Part shown: positions 1 through 42,653 of the stretch, piece by piece
Position numbering within the stretch: position 1 is the stretch's first letter
Layout: every line of letters starts with the position of its first letter
Source of the DNA: a virus
Lineage: Duplodnaviria > Heunggongvirae > Uroviricota > Caudoviricetes
DNA: 43,699 nucleotides
Virus record (IMG/VR): IMGVR_UViG_2851982317_000004
Reading direction: 5' to 3' (one strand)
The notes under the pieces: model-generated
What the model saw: only the letters and a program-made list of their open reading frames with translations
Told to the model about the DNA's origin: nothing
Databases searched by the model: none
Program-made: the position numbers and the translations under genes

Positions 1-1119
1 TCAAATAACCAACTTAACCCATTCCTGACCTCGAGTATCGTTATAGCGATCGGTGGTTGCCTGGACTTTATGCCCCAGTAATGTTTTTGTATCGACACCC
101 TGTGCCCGGTACAGCCGTTCTGACAGGGAACGTTGTTCATGAAATGTTGGTGGTGTTTTTCCTGCTGGTGGAATTATTCCAGCCAGGTCCCGTGCTTTGG
201 CAAAGTAATCGCTCAGGTTGTCTTTACTCATCGGCTTCGGTTGTTTCTGGTGCCGACTATGGATTAGATATGGACTTAATATTCTGTCTCGGCACCCATC
301 AATAACTTCTTTTAACGTTATCCCAATGGCATCACAGCGTAGTGTAAGCGGTAACGCCAGACGCATTCCGGTTTTTCCCTGGGTGATATGCAGGTGTTCG
401 TTCCACACATCTGAAAAACGCATGTGGCAAATGTCATCACGGCGCTGACCAGTAACAATCGCAAGAAGCATTGCGTTACGGATAAAGTGTTTTTCAGGCG
501 TTGCGTTGTAAATTTTTTGCCAGTCTTCCAGGGTGAGCCTGGCTCTGGTTACTTTAGGGATCGGTTTACGGGTAGCCTCCGGAGGATTCCATCCAGGAGG
601 AACTTCCCCTGCATGCTGTGCTTCTTTATAAATATCAACCCATAATCCACGATTTACTCTCGCTGTGCTGACCATGTCTTTATCCAGCCACTCATCCAGT
701 ATTAATGCAAAGTCTCTTACTTCCAGTTCTTTCAATGGGTGGTTTCCCAGACGGGAAACCAGGTATGCAGCCATTCGGGCTTTTTCTTTGTGAGTTGTAG
801 TTGCAATATCCCCATTTTTCAGTCGCGTGTCCTGTATTTTCAGATATCGATCAACCCATGCCTTTAATCTGATACCCCGACGTTTTGTTGCTGACGGACT
901 TTCATCAATTTTGCGCATGAAATATTCAGCTTCTGCTGCAGCTATTCGCTGATTGGCTGTGGAAGCGATTTTTTCTGCTTTGCCTTTGTCTGTTCCGAGA
1001 CCGTGAAATTTTCCAGTCACAGGGTTTTTATACTGGTAGTAAACCCTGCCAGTTCTGCGATCAAACTTTTCGTAAAGACCGGTTACGTCAGTGCTGTTTT
1101 TTCGTGGCCTCGGTGACAT
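1..1119 (-). CDS. int: Phage integrase, tyrosine recombinase
   Basis: 372 aa ORF at the prophage edge with integrase-like length and C-terminal region (HxxR-like ...LLGHKVQATTDRY...); stop codon at window positions 1-3; xis-like ORF overlaps its 5' end. Confidence 0.88.
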   Translation of the reverse strand: MSPRPRKNSTDVTGLYEKFDRRTGRVYYQYKNPVTGKFHGLGTDKGKAEKIASTANQRIAAAEAEYFMRKIDESPSATKRRGIRLKAWVDRYLKIQDTRLKNGDIATTTHKEKARMAAYLVSRLGNHPLKELEVRDFALILDEWLDKDMVSTARVNRGLWVDIYKEAQHAGEVPPGWNPPEATRKPIPKVTRARLTLEDWQKIYNATPEKHFIRNAMLLAIVTGQRRDDICHMRFSDVWNEHLHITQGKTGMRLALPLTLRCDAIGITLKEVIDGCRDRILSPYLIHSRHQKQPKPMSKDNLSDYFAKARDLAGIIPPAGKTPPTFHEQRSLSERLYRAQGVDTKTLLGHKVQATTDRYNDTRGQEWVKLVI

Positions 1120-1366
1120 GAGTTAAAATCTCCTTCAGTGCATCATCATCGCCAGTATGAATTTCCGGCGCAATTCCCGTTTCACCAGGTCCAACAAATA
1201 CTGCCCGGCGATCTATCAGCCAACGCCCACGAATTTTTTGTGGTCTTGGAACGATGTATCCTAGTTTTCCGTATTTCACCAGGGTAGTGTTTGTTATTGG
1301 GAGACTGAACCGTTTTGGTTTCCACTCATCGAGCGTTATCAGGTACTGTTCGCTCATGGCTATCAC
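1088..1366 (-). CDS. xis: Excisionase-like protein
   Basis: 92 aa ORF overlapping the int start by about 30 nt; N-terminal YLITLDEW resembles the YLTLQEW start of lambda Xis (from memory). Confidence 0.7.
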   Translation of the reverse strand: MIAMSEQYLITLDEWKPKRFSLPITNTTLVKYGKLGYIVPRPQKIRGRWLIDRRAVFVGPGETGIAPEIHTGDDDALKEILTHVTEATKKQH

Positions 1367-1418
1367 TCCGGAACGCGCCAGTTGCAGAATACCAACGACA
1401 ACTGGCGACGGTTGAACA

Positions 1419-3890
1419 TTAAAAATCAGCCTGATTCGGAATCAGTTTTTGCCAGATAGCTGAAACGTATTTTGCCTGGTAACGGGCGTCATCAAGTGCA
1501 TTATGGCGCTCACCTTCGAATGGAATAGCCGTTCTGGCATCGAAGTCTATGGCTTTCCCCAGCTCAACGATTGTGCGTACATCGCGATCGTTGTAGTAAC
1601 GCCACGGGCAGGGGATCCCCTGCCGTTCGTATGAACGGCGCAAAATCGTGTTGTCGAAGTTGGCTCCATTTCCCCAGACCTGAACAAAAAATTCACCGGA
1701 GTTTTCGTCGATAAATTCCCGCAATTGTAACAGTGCATCATCTAACGGGATTTCATCGGTCATAATGGCAGATTGCGCTTCGCGTGATTGCTTAAGCCAC
1801 CATTTAATGGTGTCCCGATCAATGACTCCGCCAGCAGTTTCCAGATCGATAGTCTTACTAAATTCCGGTCCCATATCTCCGGTTTGCGGATCGAAAAATA
1901 TTGCACCTATTGAGATAATCGGGGCATCAGGATTTTTTCCCATGGTTTCAAGGTCGATCATTAGATGGTCACACGTCCTACTGGCGGATGTGATTTCGTG
2001 ATGACCGTTCACCTTAATTGAGTGATCTGCCGTCTCGCCAGTTTCATTATCGCTATTGTGATGCTGATTGCCGCCAGTGTTCTTCTTGTTTGGATGTTCA
2101 GCGCCTTCCATTTCCTCCGGATCATCTTCCTGAACTTCAACCTGATACTCTTCATCGAATGTTTCCTGGTATGTTGCGTCGCCCATCACCGCGCCACAAT
2201 CAGGGCAGTTGCCGCCGCCGGTCTGACCGCAGGCGGTGCAGATCTTTTCCGGTTCCTGTTGCACTACTGGTTCAGGTTGTTTCGTTTCTTGCTCGTTTTG
2301 TAACGCATTTGGGCTGTTTTGTTCCGCTTTCTGGCCGTTCTGTTCCGTTTCTTGCTGGTTCTGGTTCACAGAATCGCGGGTTTCCATCCCCTTCACCCAT
2401 TTCGGATCATTCGGATCGCTAATTCCTACAACAAATTCACCACGTGATACTGCAAGCAGTTCATCGGCGTCAGGCTGGCTGATATTGGCTGCCTGCATAA
2501 TGTTGTTTACTTCGTCAGCGGTAACTTTTACCGGCCCTGGTTGTGCGGTCGTGTCAGATGCACCAGTATTTTGTTGTGAACCTGAGTATGTACTGTTTTT
2601 GCGGACGAAATATTCTTCTTTCGTGATTTCAGTAGCCCCGGCAGCCAGTGCCTTATCCAGACCAGAAAGTTTGTTTGCGCGACCGTATTTTTCACCATCC
2701 TTGTCGGTGAAGAGGAAGTAGAACGGCCCCTCACGCTCTACAGATGGTTCGACTTCCACTTTGCATTCGGTTTTTTCGTTGTCCGGAATTGCCGTTTCCA
2801 CTGCATCAGTTTCTGGTACTGGCGACGAGAGAGTATCAGTTGCGATCTGATTTGTTCCTTCATCTTCAAACACGCCCTTTGTAGTCAGGTATTCAGTAAT
2901 GTATTTGTTCAGTGCCACAGGGTCTTTGTGAATGTCGATCGGACGCTCACGGACAAGGCCAAAAATAGTCTGGCGGTCGTAGCGAAGGGCATCAGGCTGT
3001 TTGCGCATTGATGCTGAGATACGCTTCCAGTCTTCGCGGTCGTTGTTGATAACTTCATTTTTTGCCCAGCGATGGATGCTGCCGTCAATGTTTCCGGCAT
3101 CAATGTCACCAGGCCACAGAGCGTAGGCCAGTTCATCATCCAGTGTTTTCCATGTCTGCTTATATTCGCGACGAATGACTGCAGTGACAGGGGGGATATT
3201 TTCTGCTGAGTTTTCAGTGTGCTGTCGGTTGACTCTGGCGCGGGCGAGATCAACAGCAGACGTGTATTTTCCGGTTTCCTTGCGTTCACCTTCGCGACGT
3301 TTTTTCCAGATGCGCATCTCTGCCTGAATTTCGGGCCATTTAGCTCCAGGCTTACATTTATGCTTAACCCACCCGATGGCATGCAACTTAAGTTCTGGAT
3401 ACATGGCGTTAACTTCTGGCATTTTCATCAACGCTTCAACGATATGTCCGTCGAATGTTGCCATGTCTTCCTGCAACAGTTCCTGTGCACTAATCACCAT
3501 ATCAACGGTGATGTTTTCACATGTGTCGAACTTAACCATGACAGCGTTCTGTACTTCAGGGGCCAGCTTGTCAAAAGTGACGTTCATCGGATCTGATTCA
3601 GTCTCAACCGGGACAAAGGAAGCTGACTCCTCATCCCAGCGGTTTTCCTGCATATATTCAGCATCCCAGGAATCGAGGGCAGGGCGGGGTATACCGGGTT
3701 TATCCTCGCAAACAAGAAATTTATAAGCGCAGTCCTGAGCAGCCGGATATTGCTCCAGGAATTGCCAGGTAAATTTGGCACGGGCGCGGCGTTCGTCGCC
3801 AGCTTCAATGGCAGTGGCTACAGCGACTGCACCTTCTTCCTTTATTGCCTGTTCGTCCGGAATAGCGGCGCAAATAAAGACTTTACTCAT
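1419..3890 (-). CDS. Large exonuclease: RecE-like central region plus C-terminal DEDDh 3'-5' exonuclease domain
   Basis: 823 aa. C-terminal ~180 aa carry DnaQ-like motifs (MIDLETMG, WGNGANFD, HNALDDARY). The segment LLAVSRGEFVVGISDPNDPKWVKG resembles, from memory, a conserved stretch of Rac RecE. Sits directly upstream of xis/int. Confidence 0.75.
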   Translation of the reverse strand: MSKVFICAAIPDEQAIKEEGAVAVATAIEAGDERRARAKFTWQFLEQYPAAQDCAYKFLVCEDKPGIPRPALDSWDAEYMQENRWDEESASFVPVETESDPMNVTFDKLAPEVQNAVMVKFDTCENITVDMVISAQELLQEDMATFDGHIVEALMKMPEVNAMYPELKLHAIGWVKHKCKPGAKWPEIQAEMRIWKKRREGERKETGKYTSAVDLARARVNRQHTENSAENIPPVTAVIRREYKQTWKTLDDELAYALWPGDIDAGNIDGSIHRWAKNEVINNDREDWKRISASMRKQPDALRYDRQTIFGLVRERPIDIHKDPVALNKYITEYLTTKGVFEDEGTNQIATDTLSSPVPETDAVETAIPDNEKTECKVEVEPSVEREGPFYFLFTDKDGEKYGRANKLSGLDKALAAGATEITKEEYFVRKNSTYSGSQQNTGASDTTAQPGPVKVTADEVNNIMQAANISQPDADELLAVSRGEFVVGISDPNDPKWVKGMETRDSVNQNQQETEQNGQKAEQNSPNALQNEQETKQPEPVVQQEPEKICTACGQTGGGNCPDCGAVMGDATYQETFDEEYQVEVQEDDPEEMEGAEHPNKKNTGGNQHHNSDNETGETADHSIKVNGHHEITSASRTCDHLMIDLETMGKNPDAPIISIGAIFFDPQTGDMGPEFSKTIDLETAGGVIDRDTIKWWLKQSREAQSAIMTDEIPLDDALLQLREFIDENSGEFFVQVWGNGANFDNTILRRSYERQGIPCPWRYYNDRDVRTIVELGKAIDFDARTAIPFEGERHNALDDARYQAKYVSAIWQKLIPNQADF

Positions 3891-3969
3891 GTTGTTTTAA
3901 CCTCATTACAGATTTAAGGGTGAACAAATCCCTGCCATTGCTGGCATATAAAATGAAACCGGATATTAA

Positions 3970-4227: not shown

Positions 4228-4454
4228 ATTTTATTTAATAGCTCCCGTTCGTATTTTCTCTTATTAATGGCATCTTCAGTAAATACAGGGTTACTGATTC
4301 TGACACCAATTTCAAAACAACCTTCAGACGTATTGACGTTTGGTAATAACGTTTCCATTATCGCGTCCTCAACAATGAATTTTGTGATGCGGCGCCTGGT
4401 GCCTCCAGGTGACGTTAACCAGTTAACAATTAACGCCGGATACAGAGAACCCAC
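4170..4454 (-). CDS. Hypothetical early protein
   Basis: Track ORF starts with GTG; an internal ATG near 4358 has a GAGGA Shine-Dalgarno 6-7 nt upstream (METLLPNV..., ~62 aa). AT-rich. Confidence 0.35.
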   Translation of the reverse strand: MGSLYPALIVNWLTSPGGTRRRITKFIVEDAIMETLLPNVNTSEGCFEIGVRISNPVFTEDAINKRKYERELLNKICILSMLARLRPMQKGYWQ

Positions 4455-4540
4455 CCATAAGAACCAATACGGAAGTCAACTGGCCTTTTTAACTGTTCCG
4501 CGTGCGCTGAGCCGCATTCACCGCATCACAAAATTCACTT

Positions 4541-4587
4541 TAAAAAGGGCGGGTATCACAAGGGAAAACAAAAAACGGATACCCGCC
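4541..4587 (-). terminator. Candidate intrinsic terminator for leftward transcription
   Basis: Perfect 10-bp inverted repeat GGCGGGTATC / GATACCCGCC (about 4548-4557 and 4578-4587) followed on the minus strand by CTTTTTA; the loop is long (20 nt), which lowers confidence. Confidence 0.4.
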
Positions 4588-4927
4588 AAAAGGTAATCAG
4601 CATGGGTTGTTGCAGCGGAGTTGTCACTTAAGCGTATGGTCAACCTGACAACCCGGTGCTCCACAGGGGAGGGAGAATAGTACCCCTGCCATACTTACCG
4701 CCGCGCCATTTCGCGGATTGCCACAACCGGAAGCGTACGGTCGAATTAAATTTAACGACAAGCCTCATAGGTGAAGGCCTTCGCCGTACGCTTTCGTGTT
4801 ATGCCCTGACTTTTCAGGGATATATCCTTTCAGTAAACTGTCAGTGCCGGATGCTCACCCGTGTCCGGCGCACGCACTCCACCTCACCCGTGGAGAACTC
4901 CTTAATTACCAACCCTCAGGAGGGTGA

Positions 4928-5161
4928 ATGTTAAAATCAACTCTTATTGCTAAATGCCTTTATCAAAATCGCATGGTAAGCAGCATTTCAATAGGCGAGT
5001 CTGCAGTTAAAAGTATTTTCGAAGAGTACTTTTCCGGGCATGATTTTAATAAATGGAATACTAAATTACCGCCAGCAGTTTCAACGCGTATTCTGAAAGC
5101 AACTGAAAGAGCAAGTACAATTCGCGTTAACTATTTCATTAAAGATTTGTGGGATCTTTGA
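4928..5161 (+). CDS. Hypothetical 77 aa protein, rightward, opposite to the early-left operon
   Basis: ORF preceded by AGGAGG 5 nt upstream of the ATG; AT-rich coding sequence; 3' end overlaps the convergent 135 aa ORF by about 23 nt. Confidence 0.5.
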   Translation: MLKSTLIAKCLYQNRMVSSISIGESAVKSIFEEYFSGHDFNKWNTKLPPAVSTRILKATERASTIRVNYFIKDLWDL

Positions 5162-5546
5162 TATCCACAGAGCCTAAAGTATGTGCATATGGATGTGCTA
5201 TTGTGCGCCCCTGTAAATTTGCATCGTTTTCTAAATCTTTTGATTTCAACAGAACATCAGCAAGACTCTGAATCATGCAGAGATAATCAAAAGCAGTTGC
5301 CGTTTCTGTTCTGATTGCTGAAATAACATGACCATTCAGGCAAACAGAAATTACCCGTTCATCAATATCGTTTTCCTGTTTTTGATTATCAGAACCATAT
5401 AGCCCTGAAAAAGCATTGCGCACATTACGAACCATATTATCGATGGTTTCTTTTTTGGTGTATGCCGGGTCAATTTTCACCAGACTATCACCGAGTGTCG
5501 TTGCAGCAATTATCTGGATTTCTTTTGGTAAATCTTTAAATTCCAT
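5139..5546 (-). CDS. Hypothetical 135 aa protein
   Basis: ORF with GAGG 7 nt upstream of the ATG; begins right after the stop of the upstream ORF (5569); AT-rich; contains RTIAHPYAH, which only loosely resembles a HEPN-type R-x-H motif. Confidence 0.55.
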   Translation of the reverse strand: MEFKDLPKEIQIIAATTLGDSLVKIDPAYTKKETIDNMVRNVRNAFSGLYGSDNQKQENDIDERVISVCLNGHVISAIRTETATAFDYLCMIQSLADVLLKSKDLENDANLQGRTIAHPYAHTLGSVDIKDPTNL

Positions 5547-5568
5547 TATTAGCCTCGTTGGTTAGCCA

Positions 5569-5787
5569 TTAACGTGGGTATGTAATCATTCTGGCAATGC
5601 TTAATGCCGCTGCTTTTTCCAGATTGGTGATATCCTGCTCCAGAGCGGACAGATTTTCAGCTTGCTTAGCCCTGGCTTCATTGGCCCATTTCAGGTCCTG
5701 CGCAGCCTTAATTTTCTGGTGCATCCACTCATAAAGTTCATCATCGGTATAGTCTGGCGCGATGATGACGGGTTCTCGTTTCTGCAT
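5569..5787 (-). CDS. Hypothetical 72 aa early protein
   Basis: ORF in the leftward operon between the repressor region and the exonuclease; helical, charged composition. Confidence 0.5.
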   Translation of the reverse strand: MQKREPVIIAPDYTDDELYEWMHQKIKAAQDLKWANEARAKQAENLSALEQDITNLEKAAALSIARMITYPR

Positions 5788-6283: not shown

Positions 6284-6312
6284 AATCTAAAAGTATTTAG
6301 TTTTATAGTCAA
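6284..6312 (-). promoter_or_regulatory. Candidate leftward early promoter (PL-like) overlapping operator repeats
   Basis: Minus strand reads TTGACT, 17 nt, TAGATT; AATCTAAA-type repeats overlap (about 6285 and 6318). Confidence 0.4.
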
Positions 6313-6332: not shown

Positions 6333-6357
6333 AAAAAAAGGTCGGCATAACCGACCT
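6333..6357 (-). terminator. Intrinsic terminator downstream of the repressor gene
   Basis: 7-bp stem AGGTCGG / CCGACCT with 5-nt loop, followed on the minus strand by a T6 run. Confidence 0.5.
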
Positions 6358-6379
6358 TAAGTTCAAGAACATGGCAGGG

Positions 6380-7027
6380 TTATAGGTTGAACTGTACACC
6401 CTTTGCTACGGCAACAATTTTACACTCTGGCGTAAGCAAGGATGATTGATAGCGCGGATTGAGAGGGCTTAAATACACAAGTTTTCCATCAATAACTAAT
6501 TTTTTTATAGTCATAGACGGTTCATTTGTAAGAGGATCTGGAACTATTACAGCGACGATACTGCCATTTTTATAACTTTCTCCTGGTCTTAGGATCACAG
6601 TGGCACCAACTGGGATACTTGGCGACCCTGAGGGGTTATGCATAGTGTCATCAGGCATTGAAACGGCAAAATCACCTTCCACTACATCAAAGAATGTGGT
6701 GATCCTATCGACATTTCCCATTGTTTTCTCTCCTTCTAAGATTAGGAAAGAAATCGCGTCACCCCACGAAAAGTAGGGGATCTTGGTGCCTGGATTGCTC
6801 TGCACAAAAGATAGTTCAGGAGACGATACTCCATACAGGAGATAGGACTCAGTAGTTCCTAATGCTTGGGCTAACTTACTTAGAGCTTTGCTGCCGGGTT
6901 CGTTTAGATCTTTCTCCCAGTACCCTATAGTAACCCCAGTCACGCCTGAAAGCTTACCCAGTTCTACTTGGGTGAGTCCCTTATCTTTTCTGAGTTTCTT
7001 AAGCCTGATGCCAAGGCTTTCCATCAT
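6380..7027 (-). CDS. Phage repressor, cI/LexA-like (HTH plus S24 peptidase-like C-terminal domain)
   Basis: 215 aa; N-terminal HTH-like LTQVELGKLSGVTGVTIGYWEK; C-terminal half has the length and Ser...Lys spacing of an autocleaving S24 domain; divergent from the Cro-like gene with operator repeats on both sides. Confidence 0.85.
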   Translation of the reverse strand: MMESLGIRLKKLRKDKGLTQVELGKLSGVTGVTIGYWEKDLNEPGSKALSKLAQALGTTESYLLYGVSSPELSFVQSNPGTKIPYFSWGDAISFLILEGEKTMGNVDRITTFFDVVEGDFAVSMPDDTMHNPSGSPSIPVGATVILRPGESYKNGSIVAVIVPDPLTNEPSMTIKKLVIDGKLVYLSPLNPRYQSSLLTPECKIVAVAKGVQFNL

Positions 7028-16192: not shown

Positions 16193-16268
16193 GGCCCTTT
16201 AGCTCAGTGGTGAGAGCGAGCGACTCATAATCGCCAGGTCGCTGGTTCAAATCCAGCAAGGGCCACCA
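16193..16268 (+). tRNA. ileZ: tRNA with anticodon CAU, probably tRNA-Ile2 (lysidine type; ileX/ileZ-like), Met not excluded
   Basis: Hand-folded cloverleaf: acceptor GGCCCTT/AAGGGCC, D-arm GCTC/GAGC, anticodon loop CTCATAA, T-arm GCTGG-TTCAAAT-CCAGC, encoded CCA; close to E. coli ileX as I recall it. Confidence 0.85.
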
Positions 16269-16365: not shown

Positions 16366-16442
16366 GCGTTGTTAGCTCAGCCGGACAGAGCAATTGCCTT
16401 CTAAGCAATCGGTCACTGGTTCGAATCCAGTACAACGCGCCA
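16366..16442 (+). tRNA. argO: tRNA-Arg (anticodon UCU, argU/argO-like)
   Basis: Hand-folded cloverleaf: acceptor GCGTTGT/ACAACGC, anticodon arm ATTGC-CTTCTAA-GCAAT, T-arm ACTGG-TTCGAAT-CCAGT, encoded CCA. Confidence 0.85.
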
Positions 16443-42069: not shown

Positions 42070-42653
42070 TGGCATTCAGAATGAGTGAACAAGCACGGAC
42101 CATAAAAATTTATAATCTGCTGGCCGGAACTAATGAATTTATTGGTGAAGGTGACGCATATATTCCGCCTCATACAGGTCTGCCAGCAAACAGTACCGAT
42201 ATTGCACCACCAGATATTCCTGCTGGCTTTGTGGCTGTTTTCAACAGTGATGAGGCATCGTGGCATCTCGTTGAAGACCATCGGGGTAAAACGGTTTATG
42301 ACGTAGCGTCAGGGGACGAGTTATTTATTTCTGAACTCGGTCCGTTACCGGAAAATGTTACCTGGTTATCGCCGGAAGGGGAGTTTCAGAAGTGGAACGG
42401 CACAGCCTGGGTGAAGGATACGGAAGCAGAAAAACTGTTCCGGATCCGGGAGGCGGAAGAAACAAAAAACAACCTGATGCAGGTAGCCAGTGAGCATATT
42501 GCGCCGCTTCAGGATGCTGCAGATCTGGAAATTGCAACGGAGGAAGAAACCTCATTGCTGGAAGCCTGGAAAAAGTATCGGGTGTTGCTGAACCGTGTTG
42601 ATACATCAACTGCACCTGATATTGAGTGGCCTACGAACCCTGTCAGGGAGTAA
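42069..42653 (+). CDS. tfa: Tail fibre assembly protein Tfa
   Basis: 194 aa; ATG overlaps the stf stop (TAATG); colinear with lambda Tfa as I recall it (MAFRMSEQ..., C-terminal IAPLQDA...IEWP). Confidence 0.85.
42492..42653 (+). repeat. Direct repeat copy 1 (tfa 3' end)
   Basis: About 160 bp highly similar to 43541..43699 (the reading frame is preserved in both copies). Confidence 0.7.

Follow-up and report, generated by a model that had tools for sequence, protein, structure and literature searches.

The closest described counterpart of the locus reported here is the antisense "noncontiguous operon" tha-1/ith-1 of S. aureus 80alpha, in which, as demonstrated experimentally, an effector/inhibitor pair is tied to the phage life cycle through its antisense layout (Rostol et al., 2024; PMC11087260). 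Its two genes are convergent and overlap by 64 nt at their 3′ ends. In lambda and P22, the roughly 190-aa membrane protein SieB is accompanied by Esc, which is made from within the gene for SieB. BstA/aba combines prophage abortive infection with self-immunity, the antidote being a DNA element (PMC8585504). In the Qin prophage, the dicBF operon runs in the order ydfA-ydfB-ydfC-dicF-dicB-ydfD (PMC5069750).

Here we describe two small convergent genes, designated A and B, that lie within an operon of the dicBF type. The window (the whole stretch of DNA analyzed, 43,699 nt) contains DicB (Pfam, 3e-37), DUF1391/YdfA, YdfB, YdfC, DUF1482/YdfD and a long dicF leader, and this gene set sits downstream of a cI-type repressor gene. 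Full-text literature searching found no description of A or B.

Results

A convergent gene pair within an early-left operon

The locus is composed of the following features (position in the window, strand, description).

4545..4596, minus: DicF-position small RNA of variant sequence, with a hairpin and U-run; same operon, downstream of the cassette
4600..4914, no strand assigned: long dicF leader, found in phages with and without the cassette (PMC5069750)
4915..5548, no strand assigned: A/B cassette, 634 bp present or absent as one unit between ydfC and the dicF leader, from alignment with Tritos, PPompW and Evi
4918..4923, plus: AGGAGG ribosome-binding site of A, from the sequence, 4 nt ahead of the ATG
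4928..5161, plus: gene A (phrog_10348), encoding an all-helical protein of 77 aa in antisense orientation within the early-left operon
5139..5161, no strand assigned: convergent 3′ overlap of A and B, 23 nt
5139..5546, minus: gene B, a 135-aa early-left protein (phrog_1363) in which a linker joins an N-module to a conserved core
5142..5360, minus: B core, residues 63-135, the part always paired with A; 41% identity to Klebsiella B
5376..5546, minus: B N-module, residues 1-57 (MEFKDLP...), common to forward proteins of other cassettes
5569..5787, minus: ydfC, the upstream neighbor of B (named YdfC by PGAP)
6284..6312, minus: candidate PL promoter, TTGACT-17-TAGATT, from a promoter scan; drives ydfA-ydfB-ydfC-B-dicF-dicB
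6338-6358, minus: terminator of the repressor gene, with the candidate PL just downstream
6380-7027, minus: cI-type gene, from ORF listing and PGAP

A preliminary description, made from the letters of this DNA, had singled out the two ORFs as an AT-rich, 3′-overlapping pair and a candidate accessory module. ORF listing bears out both reading frames, each beginning with ATG; the overlap, estimated at about 23 nt, is exactly that, and the strong AGGAGG site ascribed to the 77-aa ORF is present at 4918-4923. B has its own ribosome site, GAGG at 5553-5556 on the minus strand, 6 nt ahead of its ATG, and PGAP calls both genes in RefSeq (WP_001735122.1 and WP_001735123.1). The AT-richness is indeed marked: the cassette has a GC content of 37.2%, the window averaging 51.6% (sd 5.1% among 634-nt windows), which places it in the bottom 0.1% of such windows across the 43.7 kb, and GC3 is 0.28 in A and B compared with 0.51 in neighboring ydfC.

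Alignment also identifies the pair as an accessory insert, for phage Tritos differs by an exact indel of the 634-bp unit 4915-5548, while PPompW and Evi have the cassette. In K-12 Qin, as in Tritos, ydfC directly adjoins the leader with no insert between them; because both are viable in this form, the pair is dispensable. Among 5426 complete E. coli genomes, 677 (about one in eight) carry the cassette, whose genes are always labelled "hypothetical" in their annotations. One carrier is prophage PPompW of O157:H7, which is an integration target of Stx2a phages. A and B occur in 12 of 50,697 phage records, none of them virulent, and were seen in temperate phages and prophages only. By these genomic comparisons, A/B is a mobile, conserved two-gene cassette, and its ORFs are more than chance because the proteins are conserved across genera under purifying selection.

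Gene A

Gene A matches phrog_10348, a PHROG of unknown function, over its full length (positions 1-77 of 77, E 2.7e-46), and all 77 sampled members of its family hit this PHROG. We found 156 family representatives; homologues occur in many genera at an essentially fixed length of 74-80 aa, keep the start codon and the N-terminus MLKSTLIAKCL, and evolve with a dN/dS of about 0.1-0.15, indicative of purifying selection. AlphaFold models A with a pLDDT of 96.8 from only 22 sequences. Selection, conserved N-terminus and confident fold together argue that A is clearly a genuine protein-coding gene. The idea that the 77-aa ORF is a chance antisense frame that goes untranslated, which the preliminary description had named as a way in which its proposal could fail, is refuted for practical purposes by the 156 representatives, their length, their substitution pattern and the model. 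The alignment of distant A members is too diverse for pattern scanning.

The protein had no match in Pfam, NCBIfam, PADLOC or PDB sequences, and Pfam searches with 77 diverse family members were equally without a match. At least 10 distant loci carry A without B, and in one of these (L104) the stand-alone homologue adjoins an integrase gene. An excisionase-like role was considered for this reason and rejected, since the family is acidic (median pI 5.8) and mostly distant from int.

Gene B

Gene B matches phrog_1363 (positions 1-130 of 139, E 3.5e-42), again a PHROG of unknown function, and is modular. Its 73-aa core is represented by about 130 clusters across Enterobacterales, bears the motifs VNG, T..A..DY and LE.EAN..G[KR]T[IL].H, and is 41% identical (E 2e-18) to a stand-alone Klebsiella B of 77 aa. 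N-terminal to the core, fusions vary among a ClpX zinc finger, YdfC and the MEFKDLP module; the N-module of the window's B is in turn joined to unrelated C-terminal domains in six other proteins (P0042, P0044, P0045, P0046, P0049 and P0051). B evolves about twice as fast as A, with a dN/dS of 0.1-0.35 in the core, and alleles within E. coli are mosaic, dS being 0.42 in the B core compared with 0.02-0.06 in A. The AlphaFold model (pLDDT 76) consists of a helical hairpin at residues 8-47, disorder at 51-62, and a beta-hairpin followed by two helices at 65-111.

The preliminary description recognized neither protein as belonging to a known family, and the profile searches and monomer structure predictions it proposed leave that judgment in place: B, like A, had no match in Pfam, NCBIfam, PADLOC or PDB sequences, PADLOC-DB v2.0.0 returned 0 defense families for either protein at E <= 10, and the predicted folds (pLDDT 97 for A, 76 for B) had no match among solved or viral structures. 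Nor did Pfam or NCBIfam link A or B to the SieB, Kil, Gam or Ral families, the last three being the ordinary early proteins to which homology would have spoken against an undescribed module. Both proteins are acidic (the B core mostly so) and returned no HTH-type fold matches; a role as DNA-binding regulators was therefore set aside, and by sequence neither looks like a DNA binder.

One further suggestion, that the string RTIAHPYAH in B hints at a HEPN domain, did not survive. Were B a HEPN-type RNase toxin with A as its partner, this string, which is present in the window's protein, would be the only support. Most homologues have Lys in place of its Arg, and the motif that is conserved among them is G-[KR]-T-[ILF]-x-H; the spacing is R-x3-H, not R-x4-6-H; the core is predicted as a beta-hairpin and two helices, not a HEPN helical bundle; and Pfam, PADLOC and PDB are without matches. 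We regard the HEPN reading as effectively refuted.

Pairing of A and B

We surveyed 91 A loci, of which 4 with a truncated or cut A were left out of the pairing count. B is present in all 87 loci with an intact A, 83 scored by script and 4 from Proteus with a GTG start that was directly read only in L013. Reciprocally, 70 of 74 B loci have a convergent A; the other 4 have B without it, and a 201-aa form of B is accompanied by a different small convergent gene in 8 E. coli genomes. The pair also occurs in the distant loci L102, L110, L115, L119 and L121/122. It thus spans E. coli cassettes of 37% GC and phages of 55-65% GC (L102, L121/122), and persists even though synonymous sites are saturated and the genomes highly mosaic. 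At the level of genome comparison, these data show that A and the B core are co-inherited as a convergent overlapping pair from E. coli to GC-rich Proteobacteria.

The overlap measures 23 nt in 84 of the 91 loci and 26 nt in 3, and varies between 20 and 69 nt in phages further afield. The B stop codon, TAA, is the complement of conserved Ile-Lys codons of A (ATTAA), which explains the constant 23 nt mechanically. A conserved bidirectional terminator in the overlap was considered and rejected, as the AAAGAT/ATCTTT stem is weak and lacks conservation in other genera; a scan found no terminator between the convergent genes and none for A.

Transcriptional context

In the window, B is the fourth gene of the early-left operon, after ydfA, ydfB and ydfC. 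In other genera it leads the operon, for example in Klebsiella (L004), where it lies about 40 nt downstream of PL; there the cI terminator is followed by TTGACC-18-TATTAT with flanking ACAG-N7-CTGT operators common to OR. In 50 of the 74 contigs that carry B, the gene immediately upstream is cI. Together, these arrangements place B in the early-left (PL) operon, which CI represses. Because A is antisense inside this operon, each PL transcript that reaches dicF and dicB must cross A head-on. YdfC is probably a functional partner of B, judging from L094/L095, where the B core carries a fused YdfC-like domain (E 1e-10), and from Proteus, where a YdfC-like protein is encoded as a separate gene just upstream of B (E 4e-10).

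A DicF-type RNA lies immediately beyond A in the PL direction in E. coli, Klebsiella and Yersinia-like phages. In the window, the RNA at this position includes a terminator-like site at 4587-4574 and has no match to the Rfam DicF model even at E <= 1; across 4350-5650, Rfam returned no RNA family, only a sub-threshold STnc100 match outside the cassette. The palindromic segment adjacent to A, which the preliminary description had counted as part of the module, turns out to be the ordinary untranslated ydfC-dicF leader (4600-4914), kept in cassette-less phages. As the sole place available on the plus strand, this leader probably supplies the promoter and 5′ UTR of A. Expression of A in the lysogen from such a promoter, which the preliminary description thought likely, is plausible given the layout. 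Plus-strand RNA from 4840-4945 folds at -36.5 kcal/mol (z = -3.5). A sigma-70 scan of the E. coli leader found no strong or consensus match for an A promoter; a weak candidate picked out by eye, TTTTCA-17-TAAACT at 4811-4839, has 8 of 12 matches and falls below the scan threshold. Upstream of A in seven genera there is a conserved extended -10, TGgTATCTT, with a CTTGG/CCAAG inverted repeat; conservation of this extended -10 is confined to genera outside E. coli.

Sibling cassettes in the same slot

The slot also accommodates no fewer than four further cassettes of like design, each with two convergent genes, in 600, 387, 169 and 8 genomes; the 208/69, 179/80 and 133/92 cassettes are among them. 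Two have small genes (63 and 92 aa, unrelated to A) that are preceded by the leader and ribosome-binding site of A, while the small genes of 69 and 80 aa use CAATGGAGGATAAA instead as ribosome site. Pfam searches on the sibling-cassette proteins gave nothing useful. That the pair is ancient and widespread, that B is modular and that sibling cassettes make the slot a hotspot are points that go beyond the preliminary description.

Discussion

We tentatively propose that A and B are cognate antagonists whose expression is mutually exclusive, A being made in the lysogen and B once the prophage is induced, a reading that we regard as plausible rather than probable. In a lysogen, with PL repressed, A would be expressed from a promoter of its own; upon induction or infection, B would be made at once from PL, and PL transcription would silence A through polymerase collision and antisense RNA. 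In the polarity that we prefer, A would be a small acidic protein that, in the lysogen, binds a conserved target belonging to host or phage, its action on that target yielding an exclusion or defense-like benefit, and B, often fused to an oligomerizing module or to YdfC, would be an immediate-early neutralizer that spares the phage's own lytic cycle. An effector role for A fits the stand-alone A genes, which point to a function independent of B, and B behaves like an evolving antidote in its roughly twofold faster change, mosaic alleles and variable N-terminal fusions. The sibling cassettes of like design, the conserved extended -10 upstream of A and the precedent in 80alpha also favor the model. 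Several points count against it: co-inheritance of neighboring phage genes can be passive; phages with B only, which would gain a cost-free antidote, are rare (the 4 loci and 8 E. coli genomes noted above); relatives that lack the cassette are viable; neither a consensus sigma-70 promoter in the E. coli leader nor a terminator was found for A; and the polarity of the studied precedent is the opposite one.

The same architecture could operate with the opposite polarity, B (with YdfC) being an effector of the early lytic phase that does harm when PL is leaky and A a lysogen inhibitor that neutralizes leaked B and could blunt superinfecting phages dependent on B. The studied precedent argues for this, since in tha/ith it is the small antisense gene that inhibits the convergent operon gene (PMC11087260); dependency of a toxin on its antidote would likewise be expected to leave B nearly never without A (70 of 74 loci) and A sometimes alone, and early-left operons abound in toxic host-takeover genes, here dicB and a dicF-type RNA. 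We nevertheless place the reversed polarity on the unlikely side, because A is more conserved than B and widespread without it, and so must have a target other than B, and because dicB, kil and other toxic early genes cope without a dedicated antidote. Improbable, in our judgment, is a transcriptional brake or insulator, in which convergent transcription from the A promoter keeps leaky PL transcription out of dicF and dicB in lysogens and the A protein is secondary. The position of A directly before the DicF-type RNA in three groups of phages and the missing terminator between the convergent genes would suit such a device, and collision-based control mattered in 80alpha (PMC11087260), but the strong purifying selection on the A protein and its confident fold speak against it, as do cassette-less phages with the same dicF/dicB genes and A-family members outside such operons.

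A and B could also be two unrelated accessory genes back to back, A an independent small moron and B an ordinary early gene, with the overlap reflecting compaction and the linkage passive. Several observations lean this way: A stands alone in several distant contexts, once beside an integrase gene; the 201-aa form pairs the B core with another small convergent gene; recombination breakpoints inside B mean that A and B share no single history in E. coli; and the fixed 23 nt is mechanical. The pairing has, however, outlasted the shift from 37% to 55-65% GC, the saturation of synonymous sites and overlaps varying from 20 to 69 nt, and five unrelated cassettes in the slot keep a forward C-domain with a small convergent gene, which makes passive linkage, to our minds, unlikely.

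Extending the antagonist-pair model to the sibling cassettes, the slot between ydfC (or cI/PL) and the dicF RNA might be an unrecognized hypervariable lambdoid locus that stores swappable, life-cycle-coupled antagonist pairs, each cassette combining a lysogen-expressed effector or immunity protein with an immediate-early partner in convergent wiring. A/B would be its founding and most ancient pair, with two new folds and a superinfection-exclusion or defense function with self-immunity. This wider reading is possible, if somewhat doubtful; if true, between about one tenth and one third of E. coli strains, including O157:H7, would have an exclusion/defense system of this kind. With at least four siblings of the same design, the locus offers a compact, tractable source of genes for phage-phage and phage-host antagonism. 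The A/B cassette itself is common (677 of 5426 E. coli genomes) and housed within the classic dicBF operon, and the culturable cassette phage Evi, with its close cassette-less relative Tritos, makes the hypothesis directly testable. Should it hold, the antisense noncontiguous-operon logic would have a Gram-negative counterpart in A/B, with an activity on in lysogeny and off in lysis, achieved with two families without known relatives or folds.

The likeness to tha/ith is one of architecture. In both systems a small antisense gene is nested in a phage operon and faces a convergent, 3′-overlapping partner, both are prophage-borne, and in both the small gene long went unannotated or misannotated. 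The 66-aa gene of tha/ith has its own promoter and antagonizes its partner, with expression exclusive between lysogeny and lysis; the resemblance of A/B ends at the layout. BLASTP gives no sequence similarity (A against Ith-1, E 0.76; B against Tha-1, E 3.0). Tha is a 301-aa HEPN RNase, whereas B has a 73-aa core without an enzymatic motif; the host operon is reversed, tha/ith lying in the cI operon, on in lysogeny, and A/B in the PL operon, on in lysis; and the hosts are Gram-positive in one case and Proteobacteria in the other.

Like the proposed A/B, SieB/Esc and BstA/aba combine a lysogen-expressed anti-phage function with a phage-encoded escape, and their genes too are neighbors of the repressor and the early-left region. 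Neither SieB nor BstA is homologous, Pfam and PADLOC being empty for both A and B; A is a 77-aa soluble helical protein whose proposed antidote is encoded separately, by the convergent gene. A/B resembles type II toxin-antitoxin systems in consisting of two small cognate proteins on a mobile element, and B nearly never occurs without A. Unlike them, A/B is convergent, not a co-directional autoregulated bicistron, and its mostly acidic proteins have no DNA-binding antitoxin domain, known toxin fold or toxin-antitoxin Pfam match. Compared with dicBF of Qin, the operon in the window is the same, with the 634-bp A/B cassette added and a variant RNA in the DicF position.

A 634-bp insert in the early-left operon of a Qin-like prophage

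The window is an E. coli lambdoid prophage with an early-left operon of the Qin dicBF type. Read leftward from the repressor, the region is arranged as follows.

6380-7027 (-), cI-type repressor gene
6338-6358 (-), terminator of the cI-type repressor gene
6284-6312 (-), PL-like promoter
(-), between the PL-like promoter and ydfC, a ydfA-like gene (DUF1391), then ydfB
5569-5787 (-), ydfC, directly ahead of B
5139..5546 (-), gene B, 135 aa
4928..5161 (+), gene A, 77 aa, antisense
4600-4914, structured leader of 315 nt, after B and antisense A
about 4545-4596 (-), DicF-position small RNA
(-), last in order, dicB (Pfam, 3e-37), a ydfD-like DUF1482 gene and an exonuclease gene

The ORF listing contains both reading frames of the preliminary description, each with an ATG start, and their 3′ ends share 23 nt, as it had claimed. 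The AGGAGG site it assigned to A lies at 4918-4923, 4 nt upstream of the start codon; B has GAGG 6 nt ahead of its ATG. The reported AT-richness was also confirmed: cassette GC is 37.2% against a window mean of 51.6%, within the lowest 0.1% of all 634-nt windows of the 43.7 kb, and GC3 is 0.28 in both A and B and 0.51 in the adjoining ydfC.

We mapped the indel by aligning the window with phages Tritos, PPompW and Evi. In Tritos, which lacks the cassette, ...TTAATTACCAACC is joined directly to TTAGC..., the sequence downstream of ydfC; at this junction the window, PPompW and Evi carry 634 additional bases (window 4915-5548) whose only content is A and B. The proposal of an undescribed accessory module thus holds, given this exact indel and database labels that all read 'hypothetical', but its inclusion of the adjacent palindromic segment does not, because that segment lies outside the insert. 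We rejected the segment as a cassette component: it is the GC-rich, ordinary dicF leader, conserved in phages without the cassette. Over 4915-5549 the sequence matches strain ATCC 43886 at 100% identity. Because the right end of their dicF leader resembles the A leader of other genera (see below), phages without the cassette, Tritos and K-12 Qin among them, may once have carried A/B and since deleted them.

The DicF-position RNA is a sequence variant (…UUGGCGGGUAUCCGUUUUUUGUUUUCCCUUGUGAUACCCGCCCUUUUU) that keeps the hairpin and U-run; the Rfam DicF model did not match it even at E <= 1, and it may act on a different range of targets from K-12 DicF. A further variant occurs in an E. coli prophage contig, L010. 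Between this RNA and dicB, the Rfam model of the sRNA STnc100 gives a match below threshold (4381-4535 (-), 28.5 bits against a gathering score of 47, E 5.7e-4). Elsewhere in the window are a full-length sok antitoxin RNA (RF01794; 11685-11860 (+), 118.9 bits), which indicates a hok/sok-type type I toxin-antitoxin locus within the prophage, an IS009 RNA family match (42412-42610 (+), 225 bits) and two phage-borne tRNA genes (16193-16265 (+) and 16366-16439 (+)).

A and B are conserved protein families

A and B are real genes. Homologues of A are nearly always 77 aa long; those from Klebsiella, Serratia, Dickeya, Xenorhabdus, Yersinia, Morganella, Salmonella and Proteus show 53-71% identity, with near-invariant ends (N-terminal MLKSTLIAKCL.Q, C-terminal FIKDLW). 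Against other genera dN is 0.33-0.39 and dS is saturated, for a dN/dS of roughly 0.1-0.15. AlphaFold, working from only 22 sequences, predicted a five-helix domain (pLDDT 96.8, pTM 0.86). Clustered at 50% identity, the family found by an exhaustive profile search has 156 representatives, almost all of them stand-alone proteins 74-80 aa long. The median pI of the family is 5.8, and 76% of its members are acidic. Every member sampled belongs to phrog_10348, and Pfam matched none of them. One distant member (L104, 74-313 (+)) stops exactly where an integrase gene (314-1498 (+)) starts, a slot in which genes are usually annotated xis.

B belongs to phrog_1363 and is modular. Residues 1-57 (MEFKDLP...) form a helical hairpin that also starts proteins with quite different C-terminal halves, residues 51-62 are predicted to be disordered, and residues 63-135 make up a conserved core, predicted as a beta-hairpin and two helices, with the motifs VNG, T..A..DY and LE.EAN..G[KR]T[IL].H. 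The core family comprises about 130 clusters across Enterobacterales, every one annotated hypothetical, and the preliminary view that neither protein matches a recognised family was borne out. Its weak HEPN-like hint in RTIAHPYAH was not: most homologues have Lys in place of the Arg of RTIAH, the motif is spaced R-x3-H, and the predicted fold has no HEPN helical bundle. The core is under purifying selection (dN/dS 0.1-0.35), evolving at about twice the rate of A. Among E. coli sequences A hardly varies (dS 0.02-0.06) whereas B-core alleles diverge (dS 0.42), so recombination breakpoints fall within B.

Core-only forms of B (77-87 aa; 41% identity to residues 64-131 of the B encoded in the window, E 2e-18) occur in Klebsiella, Serratia, Xenorhabdus, Photorhabdus and Proteus. 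At its N terminus the core is fused to the MEFKDLP module in E. coli; other fusions join it to a ClpX-type C4 zinc finger (PF06689) in Citrobacter-type phages (P0174-P0180; L086 4212-4682 (-)) and to a YdfC-like domain in Yersinia-like phages (L094/L095 4212-4823 (-), E 1e-10). Because ydfC is a separate gene immediately upstream of B in E. coli and Proteus, the last fusion suggests, from gene arrangement, that YdfC and B act jointly.

A and B occur as a reciprocal pair

Among 91 loci with an A gene, four with a truncated or cut A were left unscored; a convergent B was present in all of the remaining 87 (83 by script; four in Proteus, with a GTG start, read directly in L013 only). A and B overlap by 23 nt in 84 loci; in the three with a 78-aa A, the overlap measures 26 nt. 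Conversely, a non-E. coli B profile retrieved 74 viral contigs, and in 70 of these B has a convergent partner ORF of the A family, overlapping by 23, 26, 33, 51, 53 or 69 nt, with one pair 52 nt apart; of the four without A, two encode a B extended at its C terminus, and in another the locus is close to the end of the contig. Further pairs occur in L102, L110, L115, L119 and L121/122, at GC from 38% to 65%, and more distant A homologues are often stand-alone. By these surveys the pairing is ancient and reciprocal. The constant 23-nt overlap arises because the stop codon of B, TAA, is complementary to the conserved Ile-Lys codons of A (ATTAA), and no spacer separates the A stop from the conserved B-core end. 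Only 12 of 50,697 GenBank phage records (Evi, PPompW prophages) contain A and B, and no virulent phage among those records carries either gene.

The ydfC/dicF-leader slot as a hotspot for cassettes of one design

In other E. coli prophages the slot between ydfC and the leader is filled by different inserts built on the A/B plan. In each, the forward gene combines the MEFKDLP start with an unrelated C-terminal domain, and a small unrelated convergent gene follows the dicF leader common to all.

Table. Cassettes in the ydfC/dicF-leader slot, counted among 5426 complete E. coli genomes (forward / small protein; gene junction; genomes; example).
135 aa (B) / 77 aa (A); 23-nt overlap; 677/5426
208 aa / 69 aa; abutting; 600/5426; L096 2013-2849
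179 aa / 80 aa; 20-nt overlap; 387/5426; L098 2501-3263
133 aa / 92 aa; 41-nt overlap; 169/5426; L101 2501-3140
201 aa / 63 aa; 23-nt overlap; 8/5426; L010 4001-4775

The 201-aa form is B with its final 7 residues exchanged for a 73-aa extension. Upstream of A and of the 63-aa and 92-aa genes the ribosome-binding region is CTCAGGAGGGTGA; ahead of the 69-aa and 80-aa genes it is replaced by CAATGGAGGATAAA. The products of these last two genes both start with MPN[RK]P and both carry the motif G-R-x-G-P at the C terminus; the 80-aa protein also has a CPxC...CPxH zinc-ribbon-like motif. RefSeq labels the proteins of all five cassettes hypothetical, and no sibling-cassette protein matched Pfam above noise.

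B follows a CI-repressed promoter and A lies antisense within the operon

A cI/S24 repressor gene is directly upstream of B, on the same strand, in 50 of the 74 B contigs. The 183-nt cI-B gap of a Klebsiella locus (L004) holds the cI terminator, a strong promoter match (TTGACC-18-TATTAT) and ACAG-N7-CTGT operators that recur at OR, and B starts about 40 nt past the -10 element. B is thus CI-repressed and immediate-early and opens the leftward operon, in the position held by N in lambda. All PL transcription must then traverse A head-on before reaching a DicF-like RNA and recombination genes. A DicF-like hairpin and U-run (…AAAAAGGGCGG…CCGCC, + strand) lies directly upstream of A in L004 (about 3870-3915) and recurs in Yersinia-like L094/L095 (upstream of 4001), so the order B, antisense A, DicF-type RNA is kept beyond E. 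coli.

The + strand of the dicF leader is the sole possible site of the A promoter and 5′ UTR. In seven non-E. coli genera the candidate promoter is a conserved extended -10 element, TGgTATCTT, followed by a CTTGG/CCAAG inverted repeat beside the ribosome-binding site. A consensus scan of the E. coli leader found no promoter; it has only a weak 8/12 match (TTTTCA-17-TAAACT, 4811-4839). Its right end (4880-4914, CTCCACCTCA…GTGGAG…ACCAACC) resembles the conserved A leader of other genera (L086/L094 3940-3990, CTCCACCTCAGGCGGCGGTGG…ACAACCAAG). A weak terminator-like site lies within ydfC (5592-5620 (+)), in a region where such sites do not exceed shuffled expectation; termination there would leave an A transcript antisense to all of B, including its ribosome-binding site.

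A possible antagonist pair

A and B are thus a mobile, conserved pair, one gene in a CI-repressed early operon and the other nested antisense within it. Expression would be mutually exclusive, A being made when PL is off and B when PL fires. On the precedent of tha-1/ith-1 in S. aureus phage 80alpha, and on this layout, we propose that A and B may be cognate antagonists coupled to the life cycle through convergent transcription. Both families are mostly acidic and show no DNA-binding folds, which makes protein-protein action likelier than gene regulation.

We lean, tentatively, towards A as the lysogen-expressed effector and B as its immediate-early neutraliser, because A is the more conserved partner and works without B elsewhere, and because B evolves fast and gains oligomerising fusions. 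The reverse polarity has the 80alpha precedent and the near-absence of B without A in its favor, and we regard it as a doubtful but serious contender. That A and B are unrelated genes in passive linkage appears unlikely. A mainly transcriptional brake against read-through into dicF/dicB is made less likely by the strong constraint on the A protein sequence, and we consider it quite improbable.

The closest studied system to A/B is tha-1/ith-1. There, a small antisense gene in a life-cycle-controlled operon encodes an inhibitor of the convergent gene's product, and experiments established that the switch between lysogeny and lysis requires this antisense layout (PMC11087260). The two systems have in common a convergent 3′ overlap, of 64 nt in the 80alpha record and 23 nt in A/B. 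For a long time ith-1 was wrongly annotated as xis, the usual label for genes in the position that the A homologue of L104 holds beside its integrase gene. We found no sequence similarity between the two pairs, and a full-text literature search returned no paper describing the A/B genes. The arrangement is already known in kind, namely an accessory gene pair of a prophage organised as a noncontiguous operon; what is new is the families to which the A and B proteins belong, the reversal of the operon polarity, the Gram-negative setting within a dicBF operon and the hotspot of sibling cassettes.
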